A stretch of DNA of 64,000 bases. Origin: a virus. How positions within the stretch are numbered: the stretch's first letter is position 1; every line of letters begins with the position of its first letter. This document shows positions 11,071-61,400 of the stretch, piece by piece. The stretch lies in IMG/VR virus record IMGVR_UViG_3300005288_000001, positions 32,001 through 96,000 of that record; one strand, given 5' to 3'. The notes under the pieces were generated by a model. The model made no database searches and was not told the origin of the DNA. It worked only from the letters and a program-made list of their open reading frames with translations. A program made the translations under genes and the position numbers.

Positions 11071-11286
11071 TTACATGAAGTCCTCGAGGTCCCCAAAGGT
11101 ATCCATCTTACCTGTTTGGGGAAGCACCTTTGGCTTGTCAGCCGGCGCATTCATGGACTGGAGTAGTTGATCGAGCGTTACGTTCTTAACGTAACCGTTG
11201 GCGATGAGGTATTGAGCGTGACGAATCTTCTTGTCACGCTCGTTTTCATCGGAGGGAAGTGTTGGTTCAGGTGCTACGGAGGTCAA
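11071..11286 (-). CDS. Small protein with C-terminal clamp-type peptide (LEDFM)
   Basis: 71-aa ORF coupled to its neighbours. Confidence 0.55.
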   Translation of the reverse strand: MTSVAPEPTLPSDENERDKKIRHAQYLIANGYVKNVTLDQLLQSMNAPADKPKVLPQTGKMDTFGDLEDFM

Positions 11287-26608: not shown

Positions 26609-27151
26609 TCATAGAATCTCCCTAATCATATTGATAATCTTGTACATGTCTGTCGGGTTCTCGTTCGGGACTTCAGTGATGTAGTCCATGTAATCGAAGT
26701 TGGACAGGATGTTGTCGATCTTCGATGCACGGCCAGCCAGGAACGTTTCATTCTGGTCGCTACCACGGTCAGCGTATCGCTTCTCGAGAATATCTTTGGC
26801 AGGCTTCTTTAGAACGATGAAGGTCACTTCGGTTTCCGGAAGAGCCAGCAGAGCATCATAAAACTTCTGCCCGGTGAGCCTATCGCCTTCATACAGCACG
26901 TTAGAACTATGCGACTGAAGCCATTTTGTTACTTCAGGTTGACATGCCATTGAGAGCTTGTCCGTACCAGCAAACACTTCGCCGTCTTCATACTTGCCGA
27001 GGATGTGAAGGTCGAGTTCCTTACAATACATTGTCTCAACCAACTTCGCGGGAGACTGTCGTTCCCAGTCGTAGCTGTCCATGAAGTTGCGCATAAGGGT
27101 GGTCTTACCCGTGCCGGGCACACCAGCAATAGCAATGATTTGTCGTGTCAT
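26609..27151 (-). CDS. P-loop kinase (candidate 5-hydroxymethylpyrimidine-DNA kinase)
   Basis: GVPGTGKTT, GTDKLSM, YEGDRL, RY..RGSDQ. Confidence 0.75.
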   Translation of the reverse strand: MTRQIIAIAGVPGTGKTTLMRNFMDSYDWERQSPAKLVETMYCKELDLHILGKYEDGEVFAGTDKLSMACQPEVTKWLQSHSSNVLYEGDRLTGQKFYDALLALPETEVTFIVLKKPAKDILEKRYADRGSDQNETFLAGRASKIDNILSNFDYMDYITEVPNENPTDMYKIINMIREIL

Positions 27152-28985: not shown

Positions 28986-29555
28986 TCAGTCGAAACTGCT
29001 CGACGAAGAGCTACTGTCCGACGAGGAATAGCTGTCGCTGGAACTGTAGCTTGAGGAACTCGAATAGCTCGGAGCTGGCGCACTGTACGTTGGTTCGTAC
29101 GAAGGTGCCGGAGCAGGCGATGGCGAATACGTTGGCGGGTCGATCGTTCGATCCTCGGTCTTCACCTCAACGTGAGGAGCCGGCGCTGGCGTAATTGGCA
29201 TCTTCGGAACCGAGTGGGTGCTCAGAACAGATTGCATCAGGAGCGCATCAGCAACCGCGTCAGAAGCGTCGCTAGTAGTGCTACGGGTGCTATCGAAAGA
29301 AGCCTTTGGTGGGGCTGTACGGGCCTTGGCTGAGGGTTGGTAGCCGTCGGTCGGGCGGCGTGGCGGATAGCTTGGCGTCAGGACTTCACGGCGAGCTTCG
29401 CGCGATTCCCACTTCTTCACGGCCTTGGGGCCACCGTTCTTGAAGACTTCGGCACGCTTCTTTTGTTGCGCGATGTACGCATCGCCAATCGAAGGTGGAC
29501 GCAGGTCCGCTTCAGCGGGCTTCGACTTGAAAAGGTTCTTGAGCCAGTTAATCAT
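28986..29555 (-). CDS. Hypothetical protein with Pro/Ser-rich tail
   Basis: MINWLKNLF start; poly-Ser C-terminus. Confidence 0.65.
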   Translation of the reverse strand: MINWLKNLFKSKPAEADLRPPSIGDAYIAQQKKRAEVFKNGGPKAVKKWESREARREVLTPSYPPRRPTDGYQPSAKARTAPPKASFDSTRSTTSDASDAVADALLMQSVLSTHSVPKMPITPAPAPHVEVKTEDRTIDPPTYSPSPAPAPSYEPTYSAPAPSYSSSSSYSSSDSYSSSDSSSSSSSFD

Positions 29556-29702: not shown

Positions 29703-30122
29703 CTACAAAGACTTTTTGTGCCATACGTTTTCTGGACTGTGCCAGACATTTTCCTTATTGGTTATATCGTGGACAAGACGCACGACCGTGGTCGGAGTCA
29801 AACCCTTCAATGCCTCTTCGATAATCTTAGCCTGAACCTCGTCATCCTCGAAGTGCACGTTGATAGTATAACCGCTACGATAGAGCATTAGCAGCGTACG
29901 AGCCTTATGTGCTCCCGAGGTTTCACGGGACTTGTGTTCGAAACGGCACGTGTTGAAGAAGATTTGGTTGTGAATACCGGCCGCATCGAGTTGACGACGG
30001 GTGGCAGTAAACTCCTCAACCGAACGACCAGTGATGATCACATCCTTCGGACCTGGATAAACACCAATCAATCCTTCTTCAAGAACGATGACGCCGTCGA
30101 TGTCAAAACTATTCATTCTCAA
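29703..30122 (-). CDS. Small capless HAD phosphatase
   Basis: FDIDGV, ITGRS, K, FEDD. Confidence 0.8.
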   Translation of the reverse strand: MRMNSFDIDGVIVLEEGLIGVYPGPKDVIITGRSVEEFTATRRQLDAAGIHNQIFFNTCRFEHKSRETSGAHKARTLLMLYRSGYTINVHFEDDEVQAKIIEEALKGLTPTTVVRLVHDITNKENVWHSPENVWHKKSL

Positions 30123-30675: not shown

Positions 30676-31971
30676 TTATTCGTAGTCGTTCTTAACGTCT
30701 TGGAAGGTGTACTTCAGATCAGCGGCCTTCGGAGCGTTTTCCTTCAGCTGTGCCTTGGTCAGATCAGTCAGGACTCGGCGGGACAGAGCATCGCATTCCC
30801 ACTTGGCGTCTTCGGTTTTCATCTGAAGAGGCGGGGTCTTTTGGGTCCAGGCTGAAGCTCCGCGGATAAAGCCCACGATACCCATCTCCGAGGCAACTTT
30901 GCAGAAACGAATCGCGCTGACCACGACCGAGCCGCTGTTAGGCGAATCTTGGACTGACAGACGGGCCGACATTTCGTAACGTGCACCACCGAACCCATAG
31001 GCAACAATATCAAAATTGGCGATCTTGTTATCCGACCCGACATACTGACCACCCGGTTTTTGTTGGACCGTGAGAGACGGTCCAGCGTAAAGGGTAGTGC
31101 CCGCGACGCTTTCGCCTCGGACCGTGCTTTGGCCTTTGAGAACATTTTCTTTGCTGATGTGCTTCGAGTGGAGACGTTCCTGCTTGGCCATATTCAGGAA
31201 GTCAGTATTGGCAGTACGACCGGTTCGGATATGTTCCTGACCTTGGGTCGAACCAGCGGCCATGTTCATTTGAATATGCTGGGTAACGTACAGGCCACTG
31301 TCCATCATCGCTCCTTGCAGAACTTCGGACATACGGCTGGCACCCCAACCCGAACGCATATCGGAACCGATGATTGTCAGACCCTTATCGATGAACTTCT
31401 GTTCAACTTCGCGGGCCTTCTCGATACCAATCATGGTGGGGATGCAATTCACGAAGTGGCAACCAGCGTTCAGGGCAGCTTGAACGTAGAACTCGGTAGC
31501 TTCTTCGGAACCGACTGGCAGGTAGTTGATGACGACGTCGACGCGAGCTTGCTTCAGCAGATGCGTTGCAGCTTCCAGATCGATGTGTTGCGGCAAGGTA
31601 TCCGGACGAACACGGAAAGAAACTTCACCAGGATAGTCCAGCATGTGGGGAGCCACGCCGTCAAGAACAGGGCCTGGCCATACCTTAGCACCAGGTTCGA
31701 TACAGAGTTCGTTAACGTATCCCACATGATCCATAGCACAGTTCGGAGCAGCTCGAATAGCTTCACGAAGTGGCTTGTTAATCTTGCGGGAATCAACGTC
31801 AAACCCAATCACGAACTCGATGTCGTTGACGGTGTATCCGCCGATGTCTTCATACATCAGACCGACTTTGTCTTGGGGATTTTCGATGTAGTATTGGATG
31901 CCTTCTACGAGAGACTTCGCACAGTTACCAACACCAACGATTGCTACGCGGATGCGTTCTTTATTTGACAT
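30676..31971 (-). CDS. ino1: myo-Inositol-1-phosphate synthase
   Basis: IVGVGNCAKSL, YLPVGSEEA, FVNCIP, NTDFLNM..RL.SK.ISK, DNK, DSPNS. Confidence 0.93.
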   Translation of the reverse strand: MSNKERIRVAIVGVGNCAKSLVEGIQYYIENPQDKVGLMYEDIGGYTVNDIEFVIGFDVDSRKINKPLREAIRAAPNCAMDHVGYVNELCIEPGAKVWPGPVLDGVAPHMLDYPGEVSFRVRPDTLPQHIDLEAATHLLKQARVDVVINYLPVGSEEATEFYVQAALNAGCHFVNCIPTMIGIEKAREVEQKFIDKGLTIIGSDMRSGWGASRMSEVLQGAMMDSGLYVTQHIQMNMAAGSTQGQEHIRTGRTANTDFLNMAKQERLHSKHISKENVLKGQSTVRGESVAGTTLYAGPSLTVQQKPGGQYVGSDNKIANFDIVAYGFGGARYEMSARLSVQDSPNSGSVVVSAIRFCKVASEMGIVGFIRGASAWTQKTPPLQMKTEDAKWECDALSRRVLTDLTKAQLKENAPKAADLKYTFQDVKNDYE

Positions 31972-32328
31972 GATTTCCTTTTTCATATGTCAGTTGTTTC
32001 CCAGTTTTGGTGAGACTGGAGGCAGAAGTTCTTGACGGAGGGGACCGTGTAGCTGCCTTACTAACTCAATTATACGCCGGAGTTACCCGGCGCACAAGTT
32101 TATTTAGGGAAATTTTACTTTGGTCTAGCTAACCAATCAACTAAAACAGTCAAACCACCAGGGCGCCAAGTAAGAGAAATTTCTTTGAGACCCTTCTCTA
32201 CCAGTCGGCAGGTCAGCATATAATCGAAAACGTGTTTGGCTTCGTTATATGCAGCCTCGGTGTAATATCCACTGACGTCTTCAAAACTGCCAAGCAAGAC
32301 ACCATCTCTGGTGACGTACTTGACTGTA

Positions 32329-33462
32329 TTAGAAGAAGTCTTCGAGGCTACCGCCTTTGCCGTACTTTTCGATTTTGTCTTTGATGATCGACTCATATTT
32401 TCCTTCAGGATCAAATAACCACTCCGGGTTAATCCCCAGCACTTCATACATGTTTGGCATGTCTTTGTACTGCTCATGCATATTGATTGGACTACCCGTT
32501 GCTTCGAACAATTTCATCAGGGCTTTTGACTCTCGCTTCCACTGAATAGTTGGATATATTTTATCATTGACCGTGTCCCGAAAGCCGTCGAAATTGATTT
32601 CAGGCCACTTTGCTTTGAATTCCAAGTAGCGGTTAACGGCATCGCCCGTATTCTGACCAGGATAATCTCGCCCGACGAAGAGCTTTTTACACTGACAGAG
32701 GTGGGTTTCGAGAGTGAAGTATGATAGATAATGATCGCTAATTCTATCGCGTGCCTTGGCCATGAGCTCTTTCTCCCACTTTGCAGCGCGCTCGCGGTCT
32801 TGCGGAGTTGGTTTGTGATTCGCGTAATGCTCGCCGACGGTGTACTGTTCTGCATTGTTGAGGAAGTGAAGACCGTTCCACACCGAAGTGTTGGCGGGAT
32901 CGTTGATGAACATTGTGTCGGGACGAATTGGCAGATCGCAAGTTTCCGCAAGAGCTTGGCTAAACAACCAACCAGTCATACGCCCAAACTTATGGAGCTT
33001 CTGAATCTCTTCGTTTACGTTGTGGTAAGATTGAGTTTCGGAATCGACCAAGCACGACTCAAACGCATCTTTAATTGACCCTTTACCTCTACGATCCACA
33101 AATTCCTGTAAGGATTGGACCATCTTGACGATATGTCCTTTGTTATATCGAGTGTCCGTAGCGAACTTTTGTCTGGGCATGGTTTCACGATTCCATTCAT
33201 CCAGAAGCTTGAAGTCCAGTTTGTCATAATCGGGGAAGGTTTGGTAGAAAATCCAAGCCATAGAACTCTGATACGTCATACCGAACAGGTAAGCGAACCA
33301 AAACTTCTGGTCTTCAGTCATAGGAGCGCCAGTAACACTGTGCGCTGTATCACGGTAGCCATTATTCCACAAATAATGATCAATGCCACCTCCCTTCAAC
33401 CGCCAGTCCAGCCAGCGGAAGAAGAGTTCATCACGGTTTTCGTTTAATCGCCAGTCTTTCAA
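32329..33462 (-). CDS. aGPT-Pplase / amino acid:DNA transferase-like enzyme (HhH glycosylase fold)
   Basis: W..YL.G.TY, TD.RY.K, FGRM..W, LETHLCQCKK; C-terminal SLEDFF. Confidence 0.8.
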   Translation of the reverse strand: MKDWRLNENRDELFFRWLDWRLKGGGIDHYLWNNGYRDTAHSVTGAPMTEDQKFWFAYLFGMTYQSSMAWIFYQTFPDYDKLDFKLLDEWNRETMPRQKFATDTRYNKGHIVKMVQSLQEFVDRRGKGSIKDAFESCLVDSETQSYHNVNEEIQKLHKFGRMTGWLFSQALAETCDLPIRPDTMFINDPANTSVWNGLHFLNNAEQYTVGEHYANHKPTPQDRERAAKWEKELMAKARDRISDHYLSYFTLETHLCQCKKLFVGRDYPGQNTGDAVNRYLEFKAKWPEINFDGFRDTVNDKIYPTIQWKRESKALMKLFEATGSPINMHEQYKDMPNMYEVLGINPEWLFDPEGKYESIIKDKIEKYGKGGSLEDFF

Positions 33463-34340
33463 AAGAAGTCCTCAAGAGTATTCGCACTGTCATCCGGTTT
33501 ATCCTGCATAAACCCAGACCAGCGGAGCTCTTTACTTAGGGGAAATTGCTTACGGAGCTCACGGATGTTTTTCAGGCGCAAGCTGTAGAAGTTCATTGAT
33601 TCGATAAAGACGGGATCTTGTTGGTAATAATCGCGAACGTAGGGCTCCTGCAAAGCTCGATAACAAGCATCCTTAGTTGCAGTTGCTCGTTCGTCGGTTC
33701 CTCGATCTCCTGAAGATTGCATACCTCCTCGGTTAGTGCCAACAGCTGTTGTGGCAACAAGCCAGTTGATAGAACCAACTCCGCCGTGGTTATGAAGAGC
33801 TCGAGCAGTTCTGATGTTATCGTCTTCATGGGACTGTTCTGTTCTAAGGGCTGACTTGTCATTGACGGCTCCCCACCAGGCGCCACCGATTTTGCGGAGC
33901 TTGAATTCAGCAAAGGGTTTCCCTTGCTTGAACATGAGATTTGGGGTGAAATCAAATCCAAAAGGCGTGGATCCAAAACATCCAAACGCGTATCCAAAAA
34001 GTCTTCCCAGAGCGACTTCATTGTCACGGCTGTCCTTATCCATAATGTCTTTGTACATCTTCACGGCAGAAATGTCATCGTCCATGAAGATAATCTTTTC
34101 CCCATCTGGGAAGTAATCGATCAGACCGTTGGTGGCGTTGTGGCCACCCTTCGGTACGATGATCATATCCAGCATAGGAACAGCTGGCAACTCAGCCTTG
34201 TATAGAGGATACTCGTCCTTCGTAACAGCCAGCACAAGCTGACGACCAAGGTCCAAGTCTGTCTGAGCGCTCAGGGTGCTGAGTGTTTTCTTCCAGATGT
34301 CTTTATGACGGCCATATGACCGTACAGCGATCTTAATCAT
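33459..34340 (-). CDS. GT-A fold GREB1/TAGT-like glycosyltransferase
   Basis: IAVRSYGR, IFMDDDI, EDD..RT, GGMQ; C-terminal TLEDFF. Confidence 0.75.
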   Translation of the reverse strand: MIKIAVRSYGRHKDIWKKTLSTLSAQTDLDLGRQLVLAVTKDEYPLYKAELPAVPMLDMIIVPKGGHNATNGLIDYFPDGEKIIFMDDDISAVKMYKDIMDKDSRDNEVALGRLFGYAFGCFGSTPFGFDFTPNLMFKQGKPFAEFKLRKIGGAWWGAVNDKSALRTEQSHEDDNIRTARALHNHGGVGSINWLVATTAVGTNRGGMQSSGDRGTDERATATKDACYRALQEPYVRDYYQQDPVFIESMNFYSLRLKNIRELRKQFPLSKELRWSGFMQDKPDDSANTLEDFF

Positions 34341-34674
34341 TCGTGGTACACCCGCATTCCGGTAGACAAGGTTTGCTCAAGAGCCATACCTTCTGTCATC
34401 TTCTTCAGTGTCTCTTTGTCCTTAGCCATCAGGGCTTCTAAATCACCATTCTTTCTGCGGACCATGAAGAATATTTTCTTAATCATAGATTGTCCAATCT
34501 TTCACTTTTAGCTTCCTATCGCCAATCTGTTTATAGGTTCCGGCTTCGATACGATCCAGAGTTTCAACGATCTCTTTGGCCACCTTCGGGTTCCAACCAA
34601 TGCCAGGGATATGGCAGCTGCAAAAGGATCCATCGTGGCGGGGATCAAGTCTCTGGCAAATTCGGCAAGGCCCA

Positions 34675-34908
34675 TCAAACATGCTCATCTGGTATCTCCA
34701 TTAGTGGCATCCAATGCGTTGGATTTCGTTCAGGGTGGTCTGTGACATGGATTGTCACACCTGAAGATGTGACCCAGTTGGTGATAAAATATCCCGCCAT
34801 CCATGGACGCTTATCACCAGGCCACACCACGATACATTGTTGGCCCTGCTGTGGCTTTTCGTCCTCAAACTTGTACCACTTCATTGCTTCGTGTAGGAAT
34901 ATGTCCAA
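34675..34908 (-). CDS. DUF551-like protein
   Basis: W....KP ... PTHWMPL. Confidence 0.6.
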   Translation of the reverse strand: MDIFLHEAMKWYKFEDEKPQQGQQCIVVWPGDKRPWMAGYFITNWVTSSGVTIHVTDHPERNPTHWMPLMEIPDEHV

Positions 34909-35074
34909 GTTCCCATTTTTGTTTGAGGATTGAACGTTGCTCGATAGACCATCGAGATGATGGGATTACCCACAGTCATGGAGACACCTTGTGTACCACA
35001 GAATTCCTCAGTGGGTTCTGGCAAGGCGCCAACATAGTCAGGTGTAAATCCCTTTCGGGAGATTGGAGTATGTA

Positions 35075-36409
35075 TCAAAAGAAATCCTCAAGTGATGCAC
35101 CCTTCTCGGCGTTCGGGTGGTGTTTCAGTAGTTCTTCCCGGCCCACGCGTTTCTCGCAATACTCAAACCACTCCTCCGAGTCCCACATACCTGGAGCGAT
35201 TCCGTTCCACTTGTAGCGTTGAAGCGGATGGCTAGGATCAAGGCGTCGACCCTCGACGAAATCTTCACGCGCTTTCTCATATTCGTAGCTGCCCAGCTCC
35301 AGCATGCCCTCTCGTAAGTAAACAACAAGACTTACTCTCTCGGAGTCTGGACTACCGAGAACAATTGGCGTGTTCCCATGAATAATGTCGTGGTTATTGA
35401 CGAGTAGTAGGTCCCCAGGCCGTACATTGACGGCCACTCGATACTCTGGGAATACGAGGTAGCCTCCGGTGTAATTTCCATCATTGGAGAGGACGAGGAG
35501 GTTAGACATACCTTCTGTATAATCGCCCGCGTCCCGATGGGCAGCCGTCCGAAACGTTGAGTTGACCGTAATCGTCGTGAATGGAGTACCCGGGATAACG
35601 AACGCTGGATCAATACTATCGGAAGCAGCTTTTTGGTTTGCGTATCGAGCCGGTAGCAAATCTCGGAACCCTTCGGCGAGACGCTGTAGAAATGGATATG
35701 CTTTGATGAAGTCTTCATAATGATCTCGTGTGTATCCAGTTGCACGGCCGAACGGGATGCGGGGATAGCGATCAAACCATCCAGCGATACCCGAACGAAC
35801 CTTGTTGCCATAGGTCGAAGTGGAGATGTAACCTGCTACTTCCTGAACTTTCTTATGGCGCTCAGGCTTCGCAAGAGGAATAAGGGAATCAACCCAACGC
35901 TCAAAATCGAAAGAAGGATCAAAACGAGCATAAACCCAAACAGTGTGCTTACCATTCCCGGTGACGACTTCTCGGCTTTCTTTCGTTGGGTAGCGCGCGC
36001 GAATTTTGTCAATTATTTCTTCCTCGACCAAAGCGGACGTAACCGAGTCTTCATCAATGGCTTCCAACATATCGTGTTGGTAATTTGTGACAAAGGCCCG
36101 AGCAACACGACCTTCTTCTGTTGTATGGCCTTCAAGGATCCCAGATGCCAGACCGCGATTTTCTGTTTCACGCGCCGCAGCACGTAAGCCTTCATATGCG
36201 GCTTGTTGGTCTTCCGTACGGAAATAATTTTTACGAAACTTGAACGCAATGCGTTTTTCGTCAAGGGGCGAACCCCCGACCGATTGGTCCGGTATGTAAC
36301 AGTCAGTGTCTTCATTGACTAGAATGTCGTAATGTGAATCGTCGATGAATCGGCCGATGGTGTTTTCGGCTTCTTCGTATCGTTGGGGAGCTACTAGAAT
36401 TTTTGTCAT
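35075..36409 (-). CDS. TET/JBP-family 2OG-Fe(II) dioxygenase (5-methylpyrimidine oxygenase)
   Basis: FTTITVN...AAHRDAGD (HxD), GGYLVFP, HGNT, RVSLVVYLRE; C-terminal SLEDFF. Confidence 0.85.
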   Translation of the reverse strand: MTKILVAPQRYEEAENTIGRFIDDSHYDILVNEDTDCYIPDQSVGGSPLDEKRIAFKFRKNYFRTEDQQAAYEGLRAAARETENRGLASGILEGHTTEEGRVARAFVTNYQHDMLEAIDEDSVTSALVEEEIIDKIRARYPTKESREVVTGNGKHTVWVYARFDPSFDFERWVDSLIPLAKPERHKKVQEVAGYISTSTYGNKVRSGIAGWFDRYPRIPFGRATGYTRDHYEDFIKAYPFLQRLAEGFRDLLPARYANQKAASDSIDPAFVIPGTPFTTITVNSTFRTAAHRDAGDYTEGMSNLLVLSNDGNYTGGYLVFPEYRVAVNVRPGDLLLVNNHDIIHGNTPIVLGSPDSERVSLVVYLREGMLELGSYEYEKAREDFVEGRRLDPSHPLQRYKWNGIAPGMWDSEEWFEYCEKRVGREELLKHHPNAEKGASLEDFF

Positions 36410-36427
36410 CAGTTATATAGATTGCTT

Positions 36428-37834
36428 TTAAAAGTTGAAGTCAAAGCCACCGCGCTTCTCAGCCGACTGTCCCTTTCCGAAACTAGTCTTATCAAAGGCT
36501 GGACCGGTGTCCTTGCCGCCAGAGTCAGCCAAGTCATCTTGGGCATCGTCTTCGACATTATACAACTTCATTCGAGCTTTGTCAACACCAACAACGAATC
36601 GCTTATAATAGCTTGGATCGCCATATCGATTCTTCAATTGCTTAATCATTAGCTGGTTCAACTCATCTAGCTCTTCAGTACGTATTATAGCTAGATAAAG
36701 ATCAAGCGCGTGGACGAGGCCCATAGACTCCGACGTATCGGTCATGGAAATATCCGACGAACCAATACCACCACGATTAACCTGGGTCGCCGTCAGGATA
36801 GGAACATTGTATTCCACAGCCAGACCACGGACTTCTTCGGCAATCGCCTTAACCGTCGTGTAGCTATTCGCGTTGGCGTTCGCACGGATACGCTGCGAGG
36901 CACAGATGTTCAGGTAATCGATAACGATCAAGTCTGGAACGAAACCACGCTTCTGCTTCAGATCCTCGATAAGAGCACGGAAGTGTCCAGCATGAGCACC
37001 GGAGGTTGGATACTCCTTGACGATTAGCTTACCAGTCGTACGGGAGGTAATCTTTCCCATACGCGAGTTGAACGTTCCCTGATCGATGTTTCTAAGTTGC
37101 TTGATCGGAGTATTGAACAGGTTCGCATCAATACGTTCCGCATAGCTGAACTCGGACATTTCCATCGAGATGATCAGGACGTTCTTACCCTGCATCAAAG
37201 TCGCTGCGGCGATGTGAGACATAACCAAAGACTTACCACCACCGGTTTCGGCGGCCAAACAGGTCAGGGTCTTGTTTCGTAAGCCGATACCATCCGTGAT
37301 CTTGTTGAGCAGATCAATGTCGAACTTGATACCAGTTTCTTGGGAGTGATAGTGTGCAAAACGATCGTCTGCATTCTCGAAGTAATCGTGACCAATGTTC
37401 GTGTCAAACGAAACGGCCAGGGCTTCTTGAAGCAGGGTTGGAATAGATTCTTGGGTACGCTTCTTGTCAACACCTTCCACAATCGCAATGGAATTGTAGA
37501 TAGCATTGTATACCGCCTTGGCCTTACAGAACTTCTCAGTTTCGTCTAGGAGCCATTGCTCGTTAACAGTTTCTGCCGCGAGCCCGTCAATAATTTCCGT
37601 CGTTGTTTTAATGTCCGCTTCCGTCAAATCCTTACGATTTGCAATAGCGATATTCAGCACCTCATGTGTACATGCCTTGGAGTACTTCTCAAAGAACTCC
37701 ACTGCGGATTCAATAAGCACTCGCTCATGACGATTCTCAAAGTATTCTGGCTTTAAGAAAGGTACAACCTTTCGGGTGTACTTTTCGTCATAGAGCAAGT
37801 GGGAAAGGATAGACTGCTCAATGCGTGCTGTCAA
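36428..37834 (-). CDS. 41: Replicative helicase (gp41)
   Basis: GHDY, GGGKS, SMEM, DYLNIC, TATQVNR, KNRY. Confidence 0.95.
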   Translation of the reverse strand: MTARIEQSILSHLLYDEKYTRKVVPFLKPEYFENRHERVLIESAVEFFEKYSKACTHEVLNIAIANRKDLTEADIKTTTEIIDGLAAETVNEQWLLDETEKFCKAKAVYNAIYNSIAIVEGVDKKRTQESIPTLLQEALAVSFDTNIGHDYFENADDRFAHYHSQETGIKFDIDLLNKITDGIGLRNKTLTCLAAETGGGKSLVMSHIAAATLMQGKNVLIISMEMSEFSYAERIDANLFNTPIKQLRNIDQGTFNSRMGKITSRTTGKLIVKEYPTSGAHAGHFRALIEDLKQKRGFVPDLIVIDYLNICASQRIRANANANSYTTVKAIAEEVRGLAVEYNVPILTATQVNRGGIGSSDISMTDTSESMGLVHALDLYLAIIRTEELDELNQLMIKQLKNRYGDPSYYKRFVVGVDKARMKLYNVEDDAQDDLADSGGKDTGPAFDKTSFGKGQSAEKRGGFDFNF

Positions 37835-37836
37835 GA

Positions 37837-38112
37837 TTAGGTTCCACCTGTGTAAATAATAGAGTTTTTCTGCACTCCTTCTCGAAGCAGGTCCGTCAGG
37901 TGATCACCTAATTCCTGCTCAAAGGCTTCAACATCGAATTCCTCGAGGGGATTTTCGATGATATCATAATCAAATTTAAGTGCCAGCTGATCGTTCTTTT
38001 TGTCTTCAAGCAGCTGAACCTTGGAGTAACTAAAAATTATACCCGCAAACGGTCCCTCTGTAAAGGCCAAGGCCTCGATTGGTCCGTTGATGTGGCTCTC
38101 AGTGTTTCTCAT
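37837..38112 (-). CDS. gp40-like protein
   Basis: Lies between uvsX and 41; acidic. Confidence 0.5.
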   Translation of the reverse strand: MRNTESHINGPIEALAFTEGPFAGIIFSYSKVQLLEDKKNDQLALKFDYDIIENPLEEFDVEAFEQELGDHLTDLLREGVQKNSIIYTGGT

Positions 38113-38320
38113 TTACACCCTTCGTAATGTAGTCGGCTGGATAATGTGCTCCGTTAGGGAGTCGAATGTAGAACTTGTCCCATGGAACAGTCATGTAATA
38201 GGTCGTCAGGATAACATCGAATGGACCGGTGATAACATCGATCCATCGCTCACCCTGGAAACCCACCAAGACACATCCCTTCTTGTACTCGAAAAGCTGC
38301 TCGATGATTTCCTTCTTCAT

Positions 38321-39439
38321 TTATTCCACCTTTAGGTTAATTCCAATTGGTTCGTCTAGGTCGGAGTAGTCGTCATCCAGAAGTGAATCTGCAATGTCGT
38401 CATCCATATCGCTAGACATGATGTTACCGTTCGCTACTTGGTACTTCTGACGAATCCATTCCTTGAACGTTTCATCTGCCAGAATCTGATTCCAGAACAC
38501 CGAGTGATTCGTCTGCGCTTCACGCCAGTTCTTTTCCTCGATCTCACCAGTACCAGTGTTCACACGAGCGTACCAGCCGTTCTTTGGCTTGATAACGTGG
38601 CCGGATTCAAGTGCCATATCCAACAGACCGGACCACTTGTTAATCCCCTTCTCGTACATAACGTTGATAATGATCTTCGACTTTTCGCGAACGTAACGTG
38701 ACTTCTCAACATTAATCACGAAGTTCCAACCAACGATCTCAGTACCGTCCTTCTCTTGCTGACGACCGATAATGTAGATGTTATCTGCCGAGTAGTAAAT
38801 ACCCGTACCACCAGAAACGACTGCCTTCGAGTACATTTCCTGGGTTTGGTATGTATGGTTAACAACGTCCATCTTGATGTCCTTCAACTTCAAGTGAGGA
38901 GTGACCATACGGAAGACCGACTTCAGCTGTTTAGCACGAGTCATGTCGCCAACCGACTTACTATCAAGAGCGTCGTCAACTTCCTTCTTGGATGCCAGGT
39001 TACCAATCGAGTCAACAGCGATGAATACCTTATCACCACGTTCGATACCGTCCAGCTGGTTCATGACGTCAAATTTGAATTCTTCGATGTTGGTAATCGG
39101 AACGTGTAGCACACGAGACATGTCGATGTTGTATGCCTGGAAGTATGCTTGGGGAGTACCAAACTCACTATCATAGAAGATACAGATTGAGTCCTTATAC
39201 TTGTCCAGATACGACTTGATCATCAGGAGAAGATAGGAGGTCTTGAAGTGCTTGGAAGGACCGGCCCAGATGGTCAGGCCAGGTTCAAATCCACCATCAA
39301 GGTCACCCGAAAGGGCAACGTTAATTGCGGGGACTTGGGTTGTGATCATGTCCTTCTTATGGAAGAACTTAGAAACAGCTAGAACAGCCGTATCCTTGAT
39401 CGTTGAGTTTTTCTGTAGTTTATCGAGTAGTTTGGACAT
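38321..39439 (-). CDS. uvsX: RecA-like recombinase
   Basis: GPSKHFKT, YDSEFG, DSIGNLASKKE, GGTGIYYSAD. Confidence 0.97.
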   Translation of the reverse strand: MSKLLDKLQKNSTIKDTAVLAVSKFFHKKDMITTQVPAINVALSGDLDGGFEPGLTIWAGPSKHFKTSYLLLMIKSYLDKYKDSICIFYDSEFGTPQAYFQAYNIDMSRVLHVPITNIEEFKFDVMNQLDGIERGDKVFIAVDSIGNLASKKEVDDALDSKSVGDMTRAKQLKSVFRMVTPHLKLKDIKMDVVNHTYQTQEMYSKAVVSGGTGIYYSADNIYIIGRQQEKDGTEIVGWNFVINVEKSRYVREKSKIIINVMYEKGINKWSGLLDMALESGHVIKPKNGWYARVNTGTGEIEEKNWREAQTNHSVFWNQILADETFKEWIRQKYQVANGNIMSSDMDDDIADSLLDDDYSDLDEPIGINLKVE

Positions 39440-39477
39440 ATGTGTTAGAAGTATAGTAAAATAGTAAGAAGCCTTAC

Positions 39478-42018
39478 TTAGCCGAAGAAATCTTCAAGCG
39501 ATGCAGTCTCCTCAGCCGCCCACCCAAGAGGACCAATAACGGCGTTCAACGGTGCCAGGAAGGCTTTATCAAACATCGTGTCGTAGTCAATGTGCTGGTC
39601 AATCTTGAACTCTGCAGGGATCTTACTGATGTACGAAATAACGTTTTCGTGAAACGCGTTGGGCATACGGAGGTACGTATATTTGACCTTGTCTCCTTCC
39701 TGGATCATCGGATATTTGGTGTCGATCTTAAGTCGCTTCGCATGATGGTTGAAGAGCAGGGCGCCACGAACTTGGATAGGTGTGCCGGAACGATAGACCG
39801 GACTACCGGACCACTTGGCCAATCCATTACAACCACGAGGGAATGCAATCTCATTCACGTCCAACTTCATAAATTCCTGACGCGTATTCGCCACCAGCTT
39901 CTGTACGGACTTTTCGTCACCATACAGAACTGTCTCAACGGCGGAACGCAACTGTGTACGAACCACTGCTGGAGTAGACGACTTAACCAGGGCCAGACCA
40001 CGCACCTTCAACTTCGGCTTCTCATAACGAACACCTTCAGAGTCCCACACGCTGAGCGCGTAGTTCTTCTTGGCAACGAAGACCGAAACGTCAGCAAGAA
40101 CTTCTCGCTTCATGGACATCGCTTGTTTATACGAGTTCATGTATTTCGCCAGGTCTTCATACGATTGCTTAATCAGCGGCTGGATGACCTGCTCACAGAC
40201 CTTATCCATGAAGTCAATCTGGGACTTCACATCCTTGCCCGGCATCGTCTTATCTACAAGAGCCTCAAGAGTCAGGTAGAACGCGTCCGTGTCAATCGTG
40301 ATAACGTAATCCTTATCCTTCGTACCAAGAATCTTGTTCATCTTCTCGTTCATACGGTTAGCCATCCAGCGAATTGCCAGCTGACCAGATAGGGTAATGC
40401 CTTCGGCGATACGGAGATCGTAATAGCGGAAGTAGTTGGAACCGATCGCACCATAAGCCGAGTTCAGCTGAATCTTACGAGCCAGCTGCAGATTGTTCAG
40501 GCGAGCAATTTCATTGAGCAGGCTTGAGTCCTTCGTCTTCTCATACTTATCCTCAAGCGCAAGCATTTCCTTCTTAAACTTCTTACGTTCAGCATACATC
40601 TTCTCCATCAGGAACGGCAAGAAGCCTTGCTTAGACCTGGTATAGCAGACGCCGTTGGCCGTCATCGTCGCGTTGTTATCGTAGAGCCATTGAAGGTCCG
40701 TATCCTGTTCCAGGAGCCCATCCACTGTCACGTTGAAACGCTTATCCTGGATCATTGTCTCAGGACTGATGTTTGCCCACATCATAATGTGTGGATACAG
40801 ACTGTCCAAGTCGAACGAGGCGACGTTACGGTGCTTACCGACAATCGGAGGCTTAACGTAAGCTCCTTCGAACTGGCCACCCTTGCTGGTATGGGTCTTG
40901 TTCGGGATAACGATCTTCAGGTCACGGAAGTGATTGTAAATCAGGACGTCCCAGACTCGAATCTGACCAGACACGTCTTCATAGTTAACCTTCGCGTCAT
41001 AGGCCACCGTCAGCGTCAGGTCTAGCAGCTTATGCTTCGCGTCAATACCACGGACAATTTCATTGTCGATAATATTGTATGCTACGAACTTGTCCCAGTT
41101 CCCTTCATAGAATGCTCGGAAGGTATCGAACTCATCGTGGTTCAGTTTCTTTCGCTTCAGTTCTACGTCACCGATGTGGTCCAGACGATAGTTCTCTTGC
41201 TTCGGAATCGATGTCGACTTCTTATAGATTTCGATGTAATCGATGGCAGAAATACCGGCGATGAAGTAATAGATGGTCGTGTCTTCCTCAACGACTACTC
41301 GCTTCTCACGGATGACACCCCATGGCGAAATTTGCTTTGCGAAGTCTTCTCCCATCACCTTAATCATCCGACGAATCATGTAGGGGACGTCGAAGGTATC
41401 GATGTTCCAACCAGTGATAACGTCTGGATAATTATTGGCCCAGAACTTCATGAACTCTTTGAAGAGCGAAATCTCATCGGCACAGATCGTCTTCTCAATG
41501 ACAGGAATATTCTCCGGGTCATGCTCAAAGTATTCCTTCTTGATGGTAAAGTCTTTGGCCGAGAAGACATGATAGCGTTTGTGGAGGCTATCATAGAAGG
41601 AGATAAGCAGCACTTCCTGGTCGGTGGTTTCCATGTTCGGGAAGCCGTTTTCAGCACGGGTCTCGATGTCCAGGAAGTAGGTCCGAATCATATTCATATC
41701 CGGAGAACGAATGCCAGGATATGTGTCGGCGATGTACTGATACTCATAGCTGGTCATTCCATAGACGTTGAATCCATGGACATCCTTGTACTGCTCAATG
41801 AAGTTTCTACAGTCTTTGATGCTACCAGGCTTTACTGGATAGACTGGTTTACCCTCAAGAGTCGTCCACTCTGAGGTCACGCCTGTTTTCTTGGCGTCCG
41901 TGAAAAGCGTTGGTTCGAACTTGACCTTGCGCATGAATCTTTCGCCATTCCGAAAGTATCCACGTTCTAAAATCTGATTCCCGTATTGGAAAACGTTAAG
42001 GTAATTGTCTTGGCTCAT
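39478..42018 (-). CDS. 43: Family B DNA polymerase (gp43)
   Basis: DIET, GWN...FD, SFDLDSLYP, KIQLNSAYG, DTD; C-terminal SLEDFFG. Confidence 0.98.
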   Translation of the reverse strand: MSQDNYLNVFQYGNQILERGYFRNGERFMRKVKFEPTLFTDAKKTGVTSEWTTLEGKPVYPVKPGSIKDCRNFIEQYKDVHGFNVYGMTSYEYQYIADTYPGIRSPDMNMIRTYFLDIETRAENGFPNMETTDQEVLLISFYDSLHKRYHVFSAKDFTIKKEYFEHDPENIPVIEKTICADEISLFKEFMKFWANNYPDVITGWNIDTFDVPYMIRRMIKVMGEDFAKQISPWGVIREKRVVVEEDTTIYYFIAGISAIDYIEIYKKSTSIPKQENYRLDHIGDVELKRKKLNHDEFDTFRAFYEGNWDKFVAYNIIDNEIVRGIDAKHKLLDLTLTVAYDAKVNYEDVSGQIRVWDVLIYNHFRDLKIVIPNKTHTSKGGQFEGAYVKPPIVGKHRNVASFDLDSLYPHIMMWANISPETMIQDKRFNVTVDGLLEQDTDLQWLYDNNATMTANGVCYTRSKQGFLPFLMEKMYAERKKFKKEMLALEDKYEKTKDSSLLNEIARLNNLQLARKIQLNSAYGAIGSNYFRYYDLRIAEGITLSGQLAIRWMANRMNEKMNKILGTKDKDYVITIDTDAFYLTLEALVDKTMPGKDVKSQIDFMDKVCEQVIQPLIKQSYEDLAKYMNSYKQAMSMKREVLADVSVFVAKKNYALSVWDSEGVRYEKPKLKVRGLALVKSSTPAVVRTQLRSAVETVLYGDEKSVQKLVANTRQEFMKLDVNEIAFPRGCNGLAKWSGSPVYRSGTPIQVRGALLFNHHAKRLKIDTKYPMIQEGDKVKYTYLRMPNAFHENVISYISKIPAEFKIDQHIDYDTMFDKAFLAPLNAVIGPLGWAAEETASLEDFFG

Positions 42019-42067: not shown

Positions 42068-42445
42068 GGAGGGTTTGGCTAGTTTTCAGCTTTTACTGTT
42101 CGCTGCCATAAAGATTTTCTTGTACGAAGCGATGCTGCCCATGAAGTTGATGTGGCAAGCGTCTTTGTCTTTCATCGGCTGCACCTTATTCAAGTGCTCG
42201 ATAAAATGCTTCCAGGCTTCTTCAAGTTCCGTAGAAGTCATTGACTAGTTTCGTTAGTGATGCCATATCTTGGGCTACTGTCAACGGCGAACGCGACTTG
42301 AACACGTCGACTTGGTTGACTGTATCGATTACAAGGCTGGCTCGTGCCATCAAGTCTTGAGGAACTGACTTAAAGGTCCCCTCGACCAGGAAGTTCTGGA
42401 CTTGTGATCCGCTCCTTGCACTGAACGCGGAGAACTGTAAGAAAA

Positions 42446-43006
42446 TCACTTGCCGTACCTCATCATCATAATGTCGTATGCGCAGTCATGGACTGGGTCG
42501 TGCTTCTTGACTTCGGTCTTATCGAAGCCAGGAACATCGCAGTATCCATTCTTGGCCGTTTCACATAGCAAATCAATTGCCGTACGAACGTCTCGATACA
42601 CCCAGAATTTGGCTAGATCAGGGACCCCGGCCGAACGTGTGAGCGAATCGATGGCGAGTTGGTCGAGCGAACCTCGAACCCAAATCGTATCTCCCTTGAC
42701 AGGAGCATTCTTGTAGTAGTCGCGAAGCGCATCCATACCTTCGTCCACATCATGATCGAGAGCATGAGGGACGAGACTCAGGTTGCGAGCGTGATCAGAT
42801 TGTTGTGCCCACCAGTCGAGGGTGGACTTATCCGTCGAACGCTTGTACTTCTTGATCTGCTCGGAAGCATCAAACTTGATAAACTTAGCTCGCTTGATCA
42901 AGTCATTGTAGGTGAATTCTTCTTCATGCGTCCAATGAATGATCGCAGCGGAAAGAACGACGGAGGTGGATTCAATACCTGCCGTCTCAATGTCGAACAT
43001 GAACAT
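42446..43006 (-). CDS. DEDDh 3'-5' exonuclease (DexA-like)
   Basis: FDIET, RDVRT, HDPVHD. Confidence 0.8.
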   Translation of the reverse strand: MFMFDIETAGIESTSVVLSAAIIHWTHEEEFTYNDLIKRAKFIKFDASEQIKKYKRSTDKSTLDWWAQQSDHARNLSLVPHALDHDVDEGMDALRDYYKNAPVKGDTIWVRGSLDQLAIDSLTRSAGVPDLAKFWVYRDVRTAIDLLCETAKNGYCDVPGFDKTEVKKHDPVHDCAYDIMMMRYGK

Positions 43007-49036: not shown

Positions 49037-49483
49037 TTAAGGTTGAGGTTTAGCATTTGTGTCATGTTCTTTCTTGGTATTTCCAATAGAGTATTTAGGA
49101 ACGAGAGTCCAGTTCACCTTTTCCTTGAATGAAACGATCTTAATCTGGTTCATAGGAGCCTGGGGAACAGCCTTGGTAGCGTCAACGATATATAGCAGAC
49201 CCCAATCTTGCAGAAGAACTGCGATCGAGTTTCGGCGCTCTACATCGTTGACGGAGATATCGGAAGCCTTAGAATCAAGATTGAATAGCTCCTTGAAGTG
49301 GACAATGTAATAGCGTCCTTGCTTATGGAGAATGTGACACGATTGAAACAGAGTTTGGTCCTTCTTGGACGCCACTCCGATTCGCGTCAGCGTTTCTCGA
49401 ATCTTCAAAAAGTTATCCGGAGTCGATAATGTAACCTCCAACATGGACGCAGGGGTCCATTCATAACGAACTGCTTCAGTCAT
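49037..49483 (-). CDS. regA: Translational repressor RegA
   Basis: PDNFLKIRETLTRIGVAS, QSCHILHKQGRYYIVHFKEL. Confidence 0.97.
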   Translation of the reverse strand: MTEAVRYEWTPASMLEVTLSTPDNFLKIRETLTRIGVASKKDQTLFQSCHILHKQGRYYIVHFKELFNLDSKASDISVNDVERRNSIAVLLQDWGLLYIVDATKAVPQAPMNQIKIVSFKEKVNWTLVPKYSIGNTKKEHDTNAKPQP

Positions 49484-49863
49484 CTTCCACCTTTATCGTG
49501 CATCTGAGCGATACACTTTAATTGATCAGGCGTGAGGAGCTTCAAAATCTCCAAGGCTTTCGGCTCGGAAACAGTGTAGTGCTTCTTCACTAGCGCAACT
49601 TCGGCTGAGCTTTCCTTTTTCGCCCACTTAGAAAACCGTTTACGCTTTGAAACACTACTTAGTAGAAACTCGTACTGGAGCTTCTTGTCAAGGAAGGAGT
49701 ACCGATTCATTTCGTTGGCGTGCATGACCGTGTCCGGAAAGTAGGACAGGCCACGATTGACCATGAAAGGCAGATAGCCTTTCTCGCTATCCGGGTCTTC
49801 CTTGATTAAGTTCGTCTTCGAATCATTGATGGTGTTGAGCCAGTCGAATGGATTACTTGACAT
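49480..49863 (-). CDS. 62: Clamp loader small subunit (gp62)
   Basis: Y.PFMVNRGLS, ANEMN, KRKRFSKW; synteny. Confidence 0.9.
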   Translation of the reverse strand: MSSNPFDWLNTINDSKTNLIKEDPDSEKGYLPFMVNRGLSYFPDTVMHANEMNRYSFLDKKLQYEFLLSSVSKRKRFSKWAKKESSAEVALVKKHYTVSEPKALEILKLLTPDQLKCIAQMHDKGGR

Positions 49864-50157
49864 CAAACCCCACTTTCTGCATTTCCGACAGCGAGGCATA
49901 GATATTCTTGCCAGGAAGGTTCAGCTTCACATGGGCAACCAATTCTTCCTTGGTCTTACCCTGACCCGCAAACTTTCCGTTCTGATCGTACGCATAGACA
50001 ATCCCGTTCTCTTCACGAGTCAGGGTGAGATGCGCCGTGTGGTACACCATTGACTCGAGAATCTCGTCCAGTTCTTCCTTTTGGGCAAGCCGAAACGATT
50101 TGTACGAATGGTATCCCCAAACAATTAGTCCGAAGCCGACGATGCAATAGAAGGTAT

Positions 50158-51105
50158 TCACTTGAACTCCACAGATGACATAATCTCAGTCATAGCTGCC
50201 ATGACATTGATTTCGGGGTCGGCCACGAACGCAGCCTTGTACTGGTAATCGGCAAGGATCAGGATCAGTTGAGGGATAGATGCCGGTACAAGAAGATCAA
50301 CAGACTTGTCGTAGAACATACGAAATAGAGCAGAAGTGTCCACATCGCTGTTCTTACCCACCCATTGTCGGACTTTGTTAAAAGCCTTCGCTCGAACGTT
50401 ATCAACCAGTTCTTTATACGATTCATCGCCAAGGTTCACCAGAATGCCAGCATCAATCTTTCCTGATACGGCATAGCTTTGCAGTTCGTTGAGGGTGCGA
50501 CGGAAGTCCGGAAAGTACTTCGTCACCAGTTCCGCCACTACTTTGGCGTCAAACTCAACACCCTCGGCCTTCAGAATTTCAGTGACGCGCTTGTGGAATT
50601 GCATTGCAATCTTGGGCTTGTCAGCGGCCGCAACCTTGAACGAAATAGTTGTGCAACGGCTGTGGATCGGTTCAATGATCTTTGCCTTTTGGTTACACGT
50701 CAGAATGAACGAGCAGTTGGAGCTAACCGCTTCCATCACCGCTCGGAGCGCTGGTTGGAACGAGTTCGGGTTAAGGCCGTCAGCCTCGTCAATAATAATG
50801 ACCTTCTTTGCATCAGTCAGGGAGACGGTCGTTGCGAAGCCCATGAGTTTCGTGCGAAGCGTATCAATGCCAGACTCTTCCGAGCCATTAATAAGCATGT
50901 AGTCTGCACCGAGTTCGTTACATAAGGCCAATGCAATTGTGGTCTTACCAACTCCCGCAGTTCCGGGTAGAAGGAGGGACGGGATGTTTCCTTTTGCTGC
51001 ATATTCCTTGAAGATGTTCTTGATGTTGGCGGGGAGAATGCAATCGTCAATTTTGCTGGGACGGTACTTTTGATACCAGACGAATTCTTTAGCGTTGTGA
51101 TCCAT
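50158..51105 (-). CDS. 44: Clamp loader AAA+ subunit (gp44)
   Basis: KYRP, GTAGVGKTT, DEAD, SRC, PDFR. Confidence 0.97.
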   Translation of the reverse strand: MDHNAKEFVWYQKYRPSKIDDCILPANIKNIFKEYAAKGNIPSLLLPGTAGVGKTTIALALCNELGADYMLINGSEESGIDTLRTKLMGFATTVSLTDAKKVIIIDEADGLNPNSFQPALRAVMEAVSSNCSFILTCNQKAKIIEPIHSRCTTISFKVAAADKPKIAMQFHKRVTEILKAEGVEFDAKVVAELVTKYFPDFRRTLNELQSYAVSGKIDAGILVNLGDESYKELVDNVRAKAFNKVRQWVGKNSDVDTSALFRMFYDKSVDLLVPASIPQLILILADYQYKAAFVADPEINVMAAMTEIMSSVEFK

Positions 51106-51532: not shown

Positions 51533-52192
51533 TTACTCGAAAGTCGAGTCAGCTTCAATCGCGATGAAGTATTCCAGTTCGCCGTTGACAGCCTTGAAAC
51601 GGCTAATCTTCTTCGAGCTAATGGAAACGTCATACGAGCCAGCGACCAGCTTCAGGTTTTCCACCTTCAGGTTTACGCGGAACGTTCCGGTAGCAGCGCC
51701 AATCTCGATGACCGACTGGTTCGAGGTTGCGTTCTTCTTATCGGATACGACCACCGACAGCTTCGAGCCGTCACCGACAATAGCCAAGTCACCACCACGG
51801 AGAACCGCACTGGTACGTTGAATCATGGCCAGGTCTTCTTGCGAGAGCGTGAAGTTGACTTCTGCCGTCGGGAAGGTAATCTTCTTGGTTGGAGTAACCA
51901 GAACCGAGCTATCGGCAGCGAAGTACTTGATCGAGTTCGAGCCTTCTTGGATCAGAACAAACTTCTCGGTGAAGGACAGTTCCGGTTCGTTGAAGAGGCT
52001 CAGGGCGCCCAGGAATTCGCTCAGGTCATAGATACCGAACTCAGCGTCGAAGGTCTCGGTCACGACTGCGGAAGCCATGATGTTCTTCTGTGCGCTGATA
52101 GTTGCGATTTCGTTACCCGGCTTCAGCAAGAGATTGCTGTTGATGCTAGCGAAGTTCTTGAAGCGGGCGAGGGTGTCTTTGGATAGTTTCAT
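51533..52192 (-). CDS. 45: Sliding clamp (gp45)
   Basis: MKLSKDT..FKNFASIN, FGIYDLSEFL, YFIAIE. Confidence 0.95.
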   Translation of the reverse strand: MKLSKDTLARFKNFASINSNLLLKPGNEIATISAQKNIMASAVVTETFDAEFGIYDLSEFLGALSLFNEPELSFTEKFVLIQEGSNSIKYFAADSSVLVTPTKKITFPTAEVNFTLSQEDLAMIQRTSAVLRGGDLAIVGDGSKLSVVVSDKKNATSNQSVIEIGAATGTFRVNLKVENLKLVAGSYDVSISSKKISRFKAVNGELEYFIAIEADSTFE

Positions 52193-60660: not shown

Positions 60661-61320
60661 TTAGGAGTCGTCATCATTAAGTAAGTCTTCAGGAATTGGA
60701 AGACCCTCAAAGTCTGGGTCAGCCAACTCTTCTATCACAGGGTCCTCGACAAATTCGGCGAGGGACGGTTCGCTACTCTTCTTGGATTTCTTAGGCTTCT
60801 TTTTATCGAATACCGAAGTATCTACGTCGGAATGTTGTTGCATGAATTCAACCATAGAATTCGTGAACAAGCCGTCTTCATCATGCACTTGGAGGTCAAA
60901 CTGATTCTCCCATAGCATGCTGGTAACCATCTTTCCCTTAATCGCAGCTTGCTTCTTTTCGCGCGTAATGCGGCGAACGAAAGCATAGTAATTGATCTGG
61001 GTAAAATAGGCAAACGGCTTTGCGTAGTTGTAGGGATCGTAATTATCCAAATATCGAAGACAGTTTTCGATCCCGTCACTAATCATTTCGTCGCGGTATG
61101 AGTAACCTATAAAGTTTGACTTATAAGCTAGATGGCGCGCTATCTGGTAGATGCATGTTCCAATATACTCGGAAACTTGTGGCTTTTCTAAGCCTGCTTC
61201 TTTGGCAGCGTCGACTGCGGCACGGCGTTCCAGCATCGCAGCTTGGAACATCTCGTTATCCACGTAGTGGTGGGCGGTCGATTCAGGGGGATTTTCGGGG
61301 GTCAGTTCTGGCTCACTCAT
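60661..61320 (-). CDS. 55: Late-transcription sigma factor (gp55)
   Basis: HYVDN, NFIGYSYRDEMISDGIEN, PFAYFTQI. Confidence 0.95.
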   Translation of the reverse strand: MSEPELTPENPPESTAHHYVDNEMFQAAMLERRAAVDAAKEAGLEKPQVSEYIGTCIYQIARHLAYKSNFIGYSYRDEMISDGIENCLRYLDNYDPYNYAKPFAYFTQINYYAFVRRITREKKQAAIKGKMVTSMLWENQFDLQVHDEDGLFTNSMVEFMQQHSDVDTSVFDKKKPKKSKKSSEPSLAEFVEDPVIEELADPDFEGLPIPEDLLNDDDS

Positions 61321-61400
61321 AGATAAATTATACCCTAAGATGGACAGAATGGCTAGTTTCACTCCAACTGGGTAATAGTTGGTAAAATAGTGGAACACCG

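Follow-up and report, generated by a model that had tools for sequence, protein, structure and literature searches.

What does it mean that three DNA-modifying enzymes of a phage end in the same short peptide as its DNA polymerase? The question is raised by the 64,000-nucleotide window analyzed here, bases 32001-96000 of the complete 172.5-kb IMG/VR phage genome IMGVR_UViG_3300005288_000001, which is T4-like and has direct terminal repeats. The pentapeptide LEDFF is carried in this genome by the family B polymerase gp43, a TET/JBP-family dioxygenase, an amino-acid:DNA transferase (AADT, formerly aGPT-Pplase) and a glycosyltransferase of the TET-associated (TAGT) family. It is likely, judging from the sequences, that this tail is a portable peptide that binds the gp45 sliding clamp, and that the DNA-modifying enzymes are tethered by it to the replication clamp. 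The evidence for this lies in the position of the tail at the T4/RB69 gp43 epitope, the presence of a cognate gp45 and its loader, a calibration on T4, conservation of the tail on DNA-acting enzymes, and covariation across phage families.

Translated in all six frames, the whole genome contains LEDFF only four times, and every occurrence is the C-terminus of a gene (Table 1). From amino-acid composition, about 3e-4 genes would be expected to have it within their last six residues, and 0.03 copies would be expected anywhere in the proteome. The original prediction had listed these four C-termini, and the DLEDFM end of a small open reading frame (orf71), and all five are present where it placed them; the genome-wide C-terminal motif scan that it proposed gives, with a degenerate form of the motif, five C-terminal matches against 0.01 expected from shuffled proteins. 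When C-termini are scored against the genome's own polymerase tail, the polymerase scores 33, AADT and TET 31 each and the glycosyltransferase 28; the next best are a 75-amino-acid reading frame (orf75, 22) and orf71 (21), and the remaining genes score 19 or less. Synonymous codons differ among the four tails (CTC/CTT, GAA/GAG, GAC/GAT, TTC/TTT) and the DNA downstream of them is unrelated, so they are not copies of a DNA repeat, and the peptide is what has been selected and conserved. Coincidence is thus vanishingly improbable, as is an origin in the DNA itself (a repeat, a recombination scar or a regulatory element over the gene ends); such explanations are refuted by the motif counts, by the codon differences and by the protein-level conservation of the tail among hundreds of relatives (below).

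In each case the tail is a short hydrophobic-acidic peptide at the extreme C-terminus, following a flexible linker of variable length. In the AlphaFold2 model of the TET protein the body has a mean per-residue confidence (pLDDT) of 80.9, but over the final 14 residues the value drops to 68 and further to 45. LEDFF is not a canonical PIP (PCNA-interacting peptide) box (Q-x-x-[LIM]-x-x-[FY]-[FY]), as T, G, S or K, not Q, stands three residues before the L; the hydrophobic half of that box, L-x-x-F-F, does fit the tails, and the likeness is confined to it. Nor does LEDFF conform to the bacterial beta-clamp motif, which is QL[SD]LF.

Phage T4 offers a calibration. Its gp43, gp55 and gp33 have hydrophobic-acidic C-termini that can replace one another as ligands of gp45 (PMC2988020), and the tails read from the T4 record share S/T-L-D-F-L-F/Y/L, which bears out the starting assumption that all three dock on gp45 through a similar C-terminal peptide. 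When every T4 gene C-terminus is scored against the T4 gp43 tail, gp43 (32), gp55 (27) and gp33 (21) stand above a background of at most 16, and an internal scan adds only DNA ligase; the T4 scan therefore recovers only proven gp45 ligands. Binding of gp45 by T4 DNA ligase was itself predicted from an internal loop resembling the gp43 tail and was then confirmed by isothermal titration calorimetry and a crystal structure (PMC6212786); an inference of the present kind has thus been borne out once already. The proposed receptor is also present in the window: its gp45 matches, over the full length, T4/RB69 gp45 chains, among them those whose crystals contained the polymerase peptide (1B8H) or DNA ligase (6DRT), it is found as well by tblastn with the clamps of Stenotrophomonas phage DLP_6 and Caulobacter phage Cr30, and both clamp loader subunits are encoded close to it.

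Tblastn and two IMG/VR scans identified at least 575 confirmed relatives, a large T4-like clade with this TET protein, and 85 loci were classified by local BLAST. Nearly all of the 85 TET homologs end in a tail of the S/T-L-E/D-x-F/L-F/L type, the exceptions being the tail-less proteins of loci L061 and L065 and those of L063 and L064, which end SLDEPF; the TET alignment runs from a conserved body through a short linker of variable length into the tail. All 33 polymerases end in the same class of tail. Variants are carried by about 35 of 40 AADT proteins (G-L-E-x-F/L), by the GNAT acetyltransferases of one subclade (P-S-L-E-E-F-L) and, in the few examples present, by the TAGT glycosyltransferases and Dam methyltransferases. 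The same loci show no tail on 34 P-loop kinases, 49 glutamine amidotransferases, myo-inositol-1-phosphate synthase-like enzymes (Ino1), gp44 or the clamp, while gp41 and UvsX have conserved ends of their own that are different. The C-termini of the Ino1-like enzyme and the P-loop kinase of the present genome likewise lack the tail, as the original prediction had said; the reading frame that it called HAD (29703-30122) is indeed tail-less, but no Pfam match confirms that identity. Its further view, that the tail supports action of the three enzymes on DNA in one pathway, holds in so far as the tail argues for action of each of them on DNA, but a single pathway does not follow from it.

This distribution bears on whether the tail could instead be a C-terminal degradation or timing signal that limits the time window of early proteins. 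Degrons can be short hydrophobic C-terminal tags, and the carriers are all situated among early or replication-region genes. A protease signal would nevertheless leave unexplained why the tail coincides in position with the proven clamp-binding epitope of gp43, why the T4 tail class marks exactly the gp45 ligands, and why the tail is restricted to DNA-acting enzymes while their small-molecule neighbors in the island are tail-less; we regard it as highly improbable.

Several C-termini among the relatives deserve separate mention. Two Dam-type N6-adenine methyltransferases (Pfam MethyltransfD12) end T-L-D-A-F-F-G (L025:3989-4873, phage C48C1) and N-L-D-D-F-F (L063:7110-7985). In the loci where TET has lost its tail (L061:3240-5342 and L065), a TAGT gene that starts at the TET stop codon ends S-T-L-E-E-F-F. 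The glutamine amidotransferases of the modification islands (L028-L112) have a conserved D-L-Q near the C-terminus, which is a different end motif.

More distant phages allow the tails of the enzymes to be compared with that of their own polymerase. Polymerases and enzymes of these outgroups were read from their records, and Pfam assigned the tagged proteins to ADDT, HMUD2 or HMUDK_hel; for the GC-rich phages DLP_6 and Cygsa01 the annotated coordinates were used, since a simple greedy gene caller displaced the polymerase, TAGT and clamp by spurious reading frames. AADT homologs (23-25% identity) are present in phages with very different polymerase tails. In Shigella phage ChubbyThor (Ackermannviridae) the polymerase ends V-N-L-L-A-M-M plus lysines, AADT ends V-N-L-M-A-L-L, and the 5-hydroxymethyldeoxyuridine (5-hmdU) DNA kinase ends L-L-D-L-M plus lysines. 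An R/K-K/R-L-W end is shared in Vibrio phage D506 by the polymerase, AADT and two 5-hmdU DNA kinases, and in Pseudomonas phage Cygsa01 the polymerase ends V-M-D-F-F, AADT L-M-G-F-F and the kinases V-L/F-D-L-F. Unbiased whole-genome scans rank these enzymes directly after the polymerase in each outgroup genome. Nineteen enzymes selected only by Pfam from seven complete genomes have a mean score of 17.2 with the polymerase tail of their own genome and of 8.0 with the polymerase tails of the other genomes; 13 of them match their own polymerase best, and only one of the 5040 permutations of the polymerase labels, the true assignment, reaches the observed mean (p ~2e-4). The tails covary strongly between families, unlike within the TET clade (see below).

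All four outgroups encode a gp45-like clamp. Synechococcus phage S-CBWM1 has neither a family B (gp43-type) polymerase nor gp45, and its TET protein stops at precisely the point from which other TETs continue into linker and tail. In the five usable genomes the net charge of the clamp is -23, -15 and -9 in phages with basic tails, versus -4 and -6 in those with acidic tails. This range, with the most negative clamps accompanying basic client tails, would fit an electrostatic match between clamp and tail, although it is suggestive only.

The covariation shows only that polymerase and enzymes have in common a partner that differs between lineages, and it does not name that partner, which could then be the host beta clamp, gp32 or some phage scaffold touched by the polymerase C-terminus. 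The tails of Cr30 (D-L-S-S/K-L-F) do resemble the bacterial beta-clamp motif. On the other side, the equivalent tail of T4/RB69 gp43 is proven to bind gp45, a gp45 homolog is found in every tail-bearing genome examined while the sole genome that is clamp-less is tail-less, and the charge of the clamp tracks that of the tail; for a host partner, moreover, such divergence between phages of related hosts would not be expected. A partner other than gp45 is therefore given only a small probability. That the tails join the enzymes to one another or directly to the polymerase, as a modification complex formed clamp-free, deserves still less weight: identical peptides on proteins that function together could be a common assembly interface, but an identical short linear peptide on each member is typical of clients that compete for one receptor site, and the receptor of this class of peptide is known in T4.

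Several observations weigh against a clamp tether. Covariation of polymerase and TET tails within the TET clade is weak, with an identity over the 8-residue core of 4.93 versus 4.61 when shuffled (29 distinct pairs; p ~0.02, uncorrected for phylogeny). A strict prediction within the clade, that polymerases should end L-F where the TET tails do, failed, as the subclade whose TET proteins end E-D-L-F has polymerases ending D-C-F-F; these two ends belong to the same motif class but are not the same sequence, and as read from these tails the signal within the clade is a shared conserved motif class and not tight co-evolution. Some DNA-acting enzymes have no tail, namely the P-loop kinase of this clade, the AADT of Cr30 (whose TET protein has only a vestigial tail) and the HMUD2 protein of VPALA. 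In the T4 record, alpha-glucosyltransferase, beta-glucosyltransferase and Dam have no polymerase-like tail, and a 2026 study using C-terminally His-tagged enzymes did not reproduce the interaction of T4 alpha-glucosyltransferase with gp45, either in vitro or in vivo (PMC13216743). Even so, the idea that the modification enzymes are gp45 clients is supported by every computational test available (epitope position, gp45 and loader, T4 calibration, conservation and covariation), and the sequence, comparative and T4-calibration evidence together support it well. DNA modification in this phage is thus probably carried out from the replication clamp.

A tethered mode of action can be pictured as follows. 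The gp43 tail would be the counterpart of the T4/RB69 epitope that docks in a hydrophobic pocket of the trimeric clamp, and the same peptide would have been appended through a short flexible linker to TET/JBP, which probably converts thymine to 5-hydroxymethyluracil, to AADT and to the TAGT glycosyltransferase. Once gp44/62 had loaded gp45 trimers, with one pocket per subunit, onto replicating phage DNA, the three enzymes would use their tails to dock there, competing for the pockets with gp43 and the late-transcription proteins. Held on the duplex in this way they would be at a higher local concentration and could slide along the DNA, so that modification would be efficient and confined to phage DNA that is being copied or has just been copied. 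The three enzymes may act behind the fork and may cooperate, or hand their substrate over, on one ring. Enzymes that make small-molecule precursors (Ino1, the glutamine amidotransferase and the sugar-nucleotide enzymes) would need no tether, and they carry none.

Table 1. Tail-bearing proteins, clamp components and related features of the window (window coordinates)
Feature	Position	Strand	Evidence or remark
gp43 family B DNA polymerase	39478..42018	-	Pfam DNA_pol_B and exonuclease domain; PHROG DNA polymerase, E 6e-303
gp43 tail ASLEDFFG	39481-39504	-	Aligns position for position with T4 gp43 ASLDFLFG
TET/JBP-family 5-methylpyrimidine dioxygenase	35075..36409	-	Pfam Tet_JBP (PF12851), E 1e-23, 83.7 bits (cut-off 34.9)
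TET/JBP tail ASLEDFF	35078-35098	-	After short variable linker
TAGT-family (TET-associated) glycosyltransferase	33459..34340	-	Weak Pfam TAGT (PF20691), E 2e-3
Glycosyltransferase tail NTLEDFF	33462-33482	-	
AADT (amino-acid:DNA transferase)	32329..33462	-	Pfam ADDT (PF18724), E 1.6e-22, 80.8 bits (cut-off 26.2)
AADT tail GSLEDFF	32332-32352	-	
gp45 sliding clamp, proposed docking partner	51533..52192	-	Full-length match to T4/RB69 gp45 chains 1CZD, 1B77/1B8H and 6DRT, E ~1e-26
Clamp loader gp62	49480-49899	-	tblastn with annotated DLP_6 subunit, E 4e-29
Clamp loader gp44	50158-51105	-	tblastn with annotated DLP_6 subunit, E 2e-115
gp55 late sigma factor	60661..61398	-	tblastn with DLP_6 and Cr30 gp55
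orf71, ends DLEDFM	11071..11286	-	Small protein directly upstream of RNase H (rnh)
P-loop nucleotide/nucleobase kinase of modification island, tail-less	26609..27151	-	BLAST to L028 Ploopntkinase3 protein via L026 homolog
Myo-inositol-1-phosphate synthase-like enzyme (Ino1), tail-less	30676..31986	-	Pfam Inos-1-P_synth, E 4e-9

The HxD...H iron triad and the 2-oxoglutarate-binding arginine of the TET/JBP protein are in place, and H291, D293, H344 and R358 are invariant. The glycosyltransferase scores below the Pfam TAGT cut-off (18.5 versus 27.5 bits), but when its profile is compared (hhalign) with those of TAGT proteins from DLP_6, S-CBWM1 and two IMG/VR loci, the match has 99% probability and E 8e-18 over the full length, with the tails aligned to each other; its DxD-type motif D87-D88-D89 is invariant. 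The genome also encodes RegA, gp41, UvsX and RNase H. No ParB was found in a search of this genome, and ParB is thereby ruled out as partner of its dioxygenase. Megablast of the modification island against a phage collection gave no match.

The late sigma factor gp55 has an internal SLAEFV (60748-60765) located 28 residues from its C-terminus and followed by acidic residues, which is the same class of motif as the SLDFLY plus acidic residues of T4 gp55. The T4 coactivator gp33 may have an analog in orf71. The DLEDFM end of orf71 is present as the original prediction described it, but the tail is conserved only in the two closest relatives, L162 and L163, so its standing as a further clamp client, possibly a gp33 analog, is plausible but weak. 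Orf71 matches no Pfam or PHROG family and BLAST detects no resemblance to T4 gp33, so it is a candidate and not an established gp33.

Other small proteins have a similar appearance. In more distant relatives the reading frame upstream of rnh is about 115-128 residues long, ends F-L-E-D-M-Y plus acidic residues and looks gp33-like. One small protein in each outgroup (71-103 amino acids, no Pfam match) has a polymerase-type tail; these lie at 60711-60926 in ChubbyThor, 55591-55890 in D506 and 109399-109710 in Cygsa01 (record coordinates) and are candidates for gp33-like late-transcription coactivators. In the window, orf75 (42222-42449) adjoins the polymerase gene, ends V-N-D-F-Y-G-T and has no family match; its score of 22 against the polymerase tail is as high as that of gp33 within T4.

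Four further features were observed. The gp41 helicase (window 36428-37834) ends in a conserved aromatic tail of a separate kind, which reads G-F-D-F-N-F in this genome and F-x-G-F-K-F in at least 50 relatives (L026-L111); this tail is unlike the clamp motif and probably docks another replisome partner. A 497-amino-acid protein beside gp55 (window 61822-63315), in the position of the UvsW helicase of DLP_6, has an internal D-L-A-E-F-I at residue 98 that could be due to chance. A 189-amino-acid reading frame (window 28986-29555) with a long serine-rich C-terminus ending F-D is kept in the 95%-identical relative L026 and has no Pfam match. In Cygsa01 the large terminase subunit (L145:1-1710) ends S-L-D-D-F-F-N-N, resembling that phage's polymerase tail, which may point to a connection of packaging with the clamp.

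The closest known systems are the gp43, gp55 and gp33 epitopes of T4/RB69 (PMC2988020; 1B8H), where likewise an extreme C-terminal hydrophobic-acidic peptide follows a flexible linker, several clients occur per genome, and a cognate gp45 and loader are present; the gp43 tails themselves are alike in position, length and pattern. The difference is that the clients here are predicted clamp-bound base-modifying enzymes, not replication or transcription proteins, and that the modification enzymes of T4 are tail-less. T4 DNA ligase (PMC6212786; 6DRT) is similarly a non-polymerase DNA enzyme that has acquired a copy of a polymerase-type clamp motif, but it carries the motif inside the chain, on a loop of the NTase domain, and it is a replication enzyme and not a modification enzyme. 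The sole published claim that a phage DNA-modifying enzyme binds gp45 is that for T4 alpha-glucosyltransferase (Sommer et al. 2004, as cited in PMC13216743). As that citation presents it, the proposal also has a DNA-modifying enzyme riding the clamp and modifying alongside replication, but alpha-glucosyltransferase has no polymerase-like tail, whereas the present enzymes offer explicit sequence evidence of a clamp motif.

Among cellular proteins, DNMT1 and UNG2 are maintenance and modification enzymes that reach the replication clamp PCNA through a short motif, the PIP box, with the core L-x-x-F-F. The phage tails differ in having no Q at the start of Q-x-x-L-x-x-F-F, in belonging with another clamp family and domain of life, and in serving hypermodification as opposed to methylation or repair.

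The ParB-dependent thymine dioxygenases 5mYOX (PMC13229309) belong to the same enzyme superfamily and work with the same AADT, kinase and glutamine amidotransferase machinery, and in those phages, too, a DNA-encircling accessory is proposed to stabilize the dioxygenase on DNA. The present genome differs in that it has no ParB and in that the proposed accessory is the replication clamp, engaged through a polymerase-type tail. The 2026 paper on these dioxygenases treats ParB, without gp45 (PMC13229309), and the main paper on the thymidine hypermodification pathway makes no mention of clamp or replisome. Full-text literature searches combining clamp binding with aGPT-Pplase, TET, hypermodification or glycosyltransferase returned no report of such tails. 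The tails thus seem to represent a new use of a known device, in which the clamp-binding peptide of the polymerase has been copied onto enzymes that modify DNA bases.

It has long been asked, and is currently in dispute, whether the DNA-modifying enzymes of phages operate from the replisome; the 2004 claim for T4 alpha-glucosyltransferase was contradicted in 2026. The tails provide explicit and testable sequence evidence for clamp clients in many phages, among them a dioxygenase, kinases, transferases, glycosyltransferases and even Dam methylases. It is conceivable, though we lean toward doubting it, that a general rule holds for large lytic phages (T4-like, Ackermannviridae, Vibrio and Pseudomonas phages), in which post-replicative hypermodification would be tethered to the clamp by a copy of the polymerase tail, and the ring would serve as an assembly line for successive enzymes, limit modification to replicating phage DNA and replace the ParB clamp.

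Published assays of phage TET proteins and glycosyltransferases used C-terminal His tags. If the tails do bind gp45, reconstitution assays should add gp45 and its loader and avoid C-terminal tags; were the rule general, the inactivity of some phage enzymes in heterologous assays or when C-terminally tagged would also be explained. Proteins that end like their phage's own polymerase would then be recognizable, by a predictor that needs only sequence, as new DNA-acting enzymes. Clamp binding would also explain how modification is targeted to freshly made phage DNA, and it would connect the ParB clamp and the replication clamp as two means by which a thymine dioxygenase is kept on DNA.

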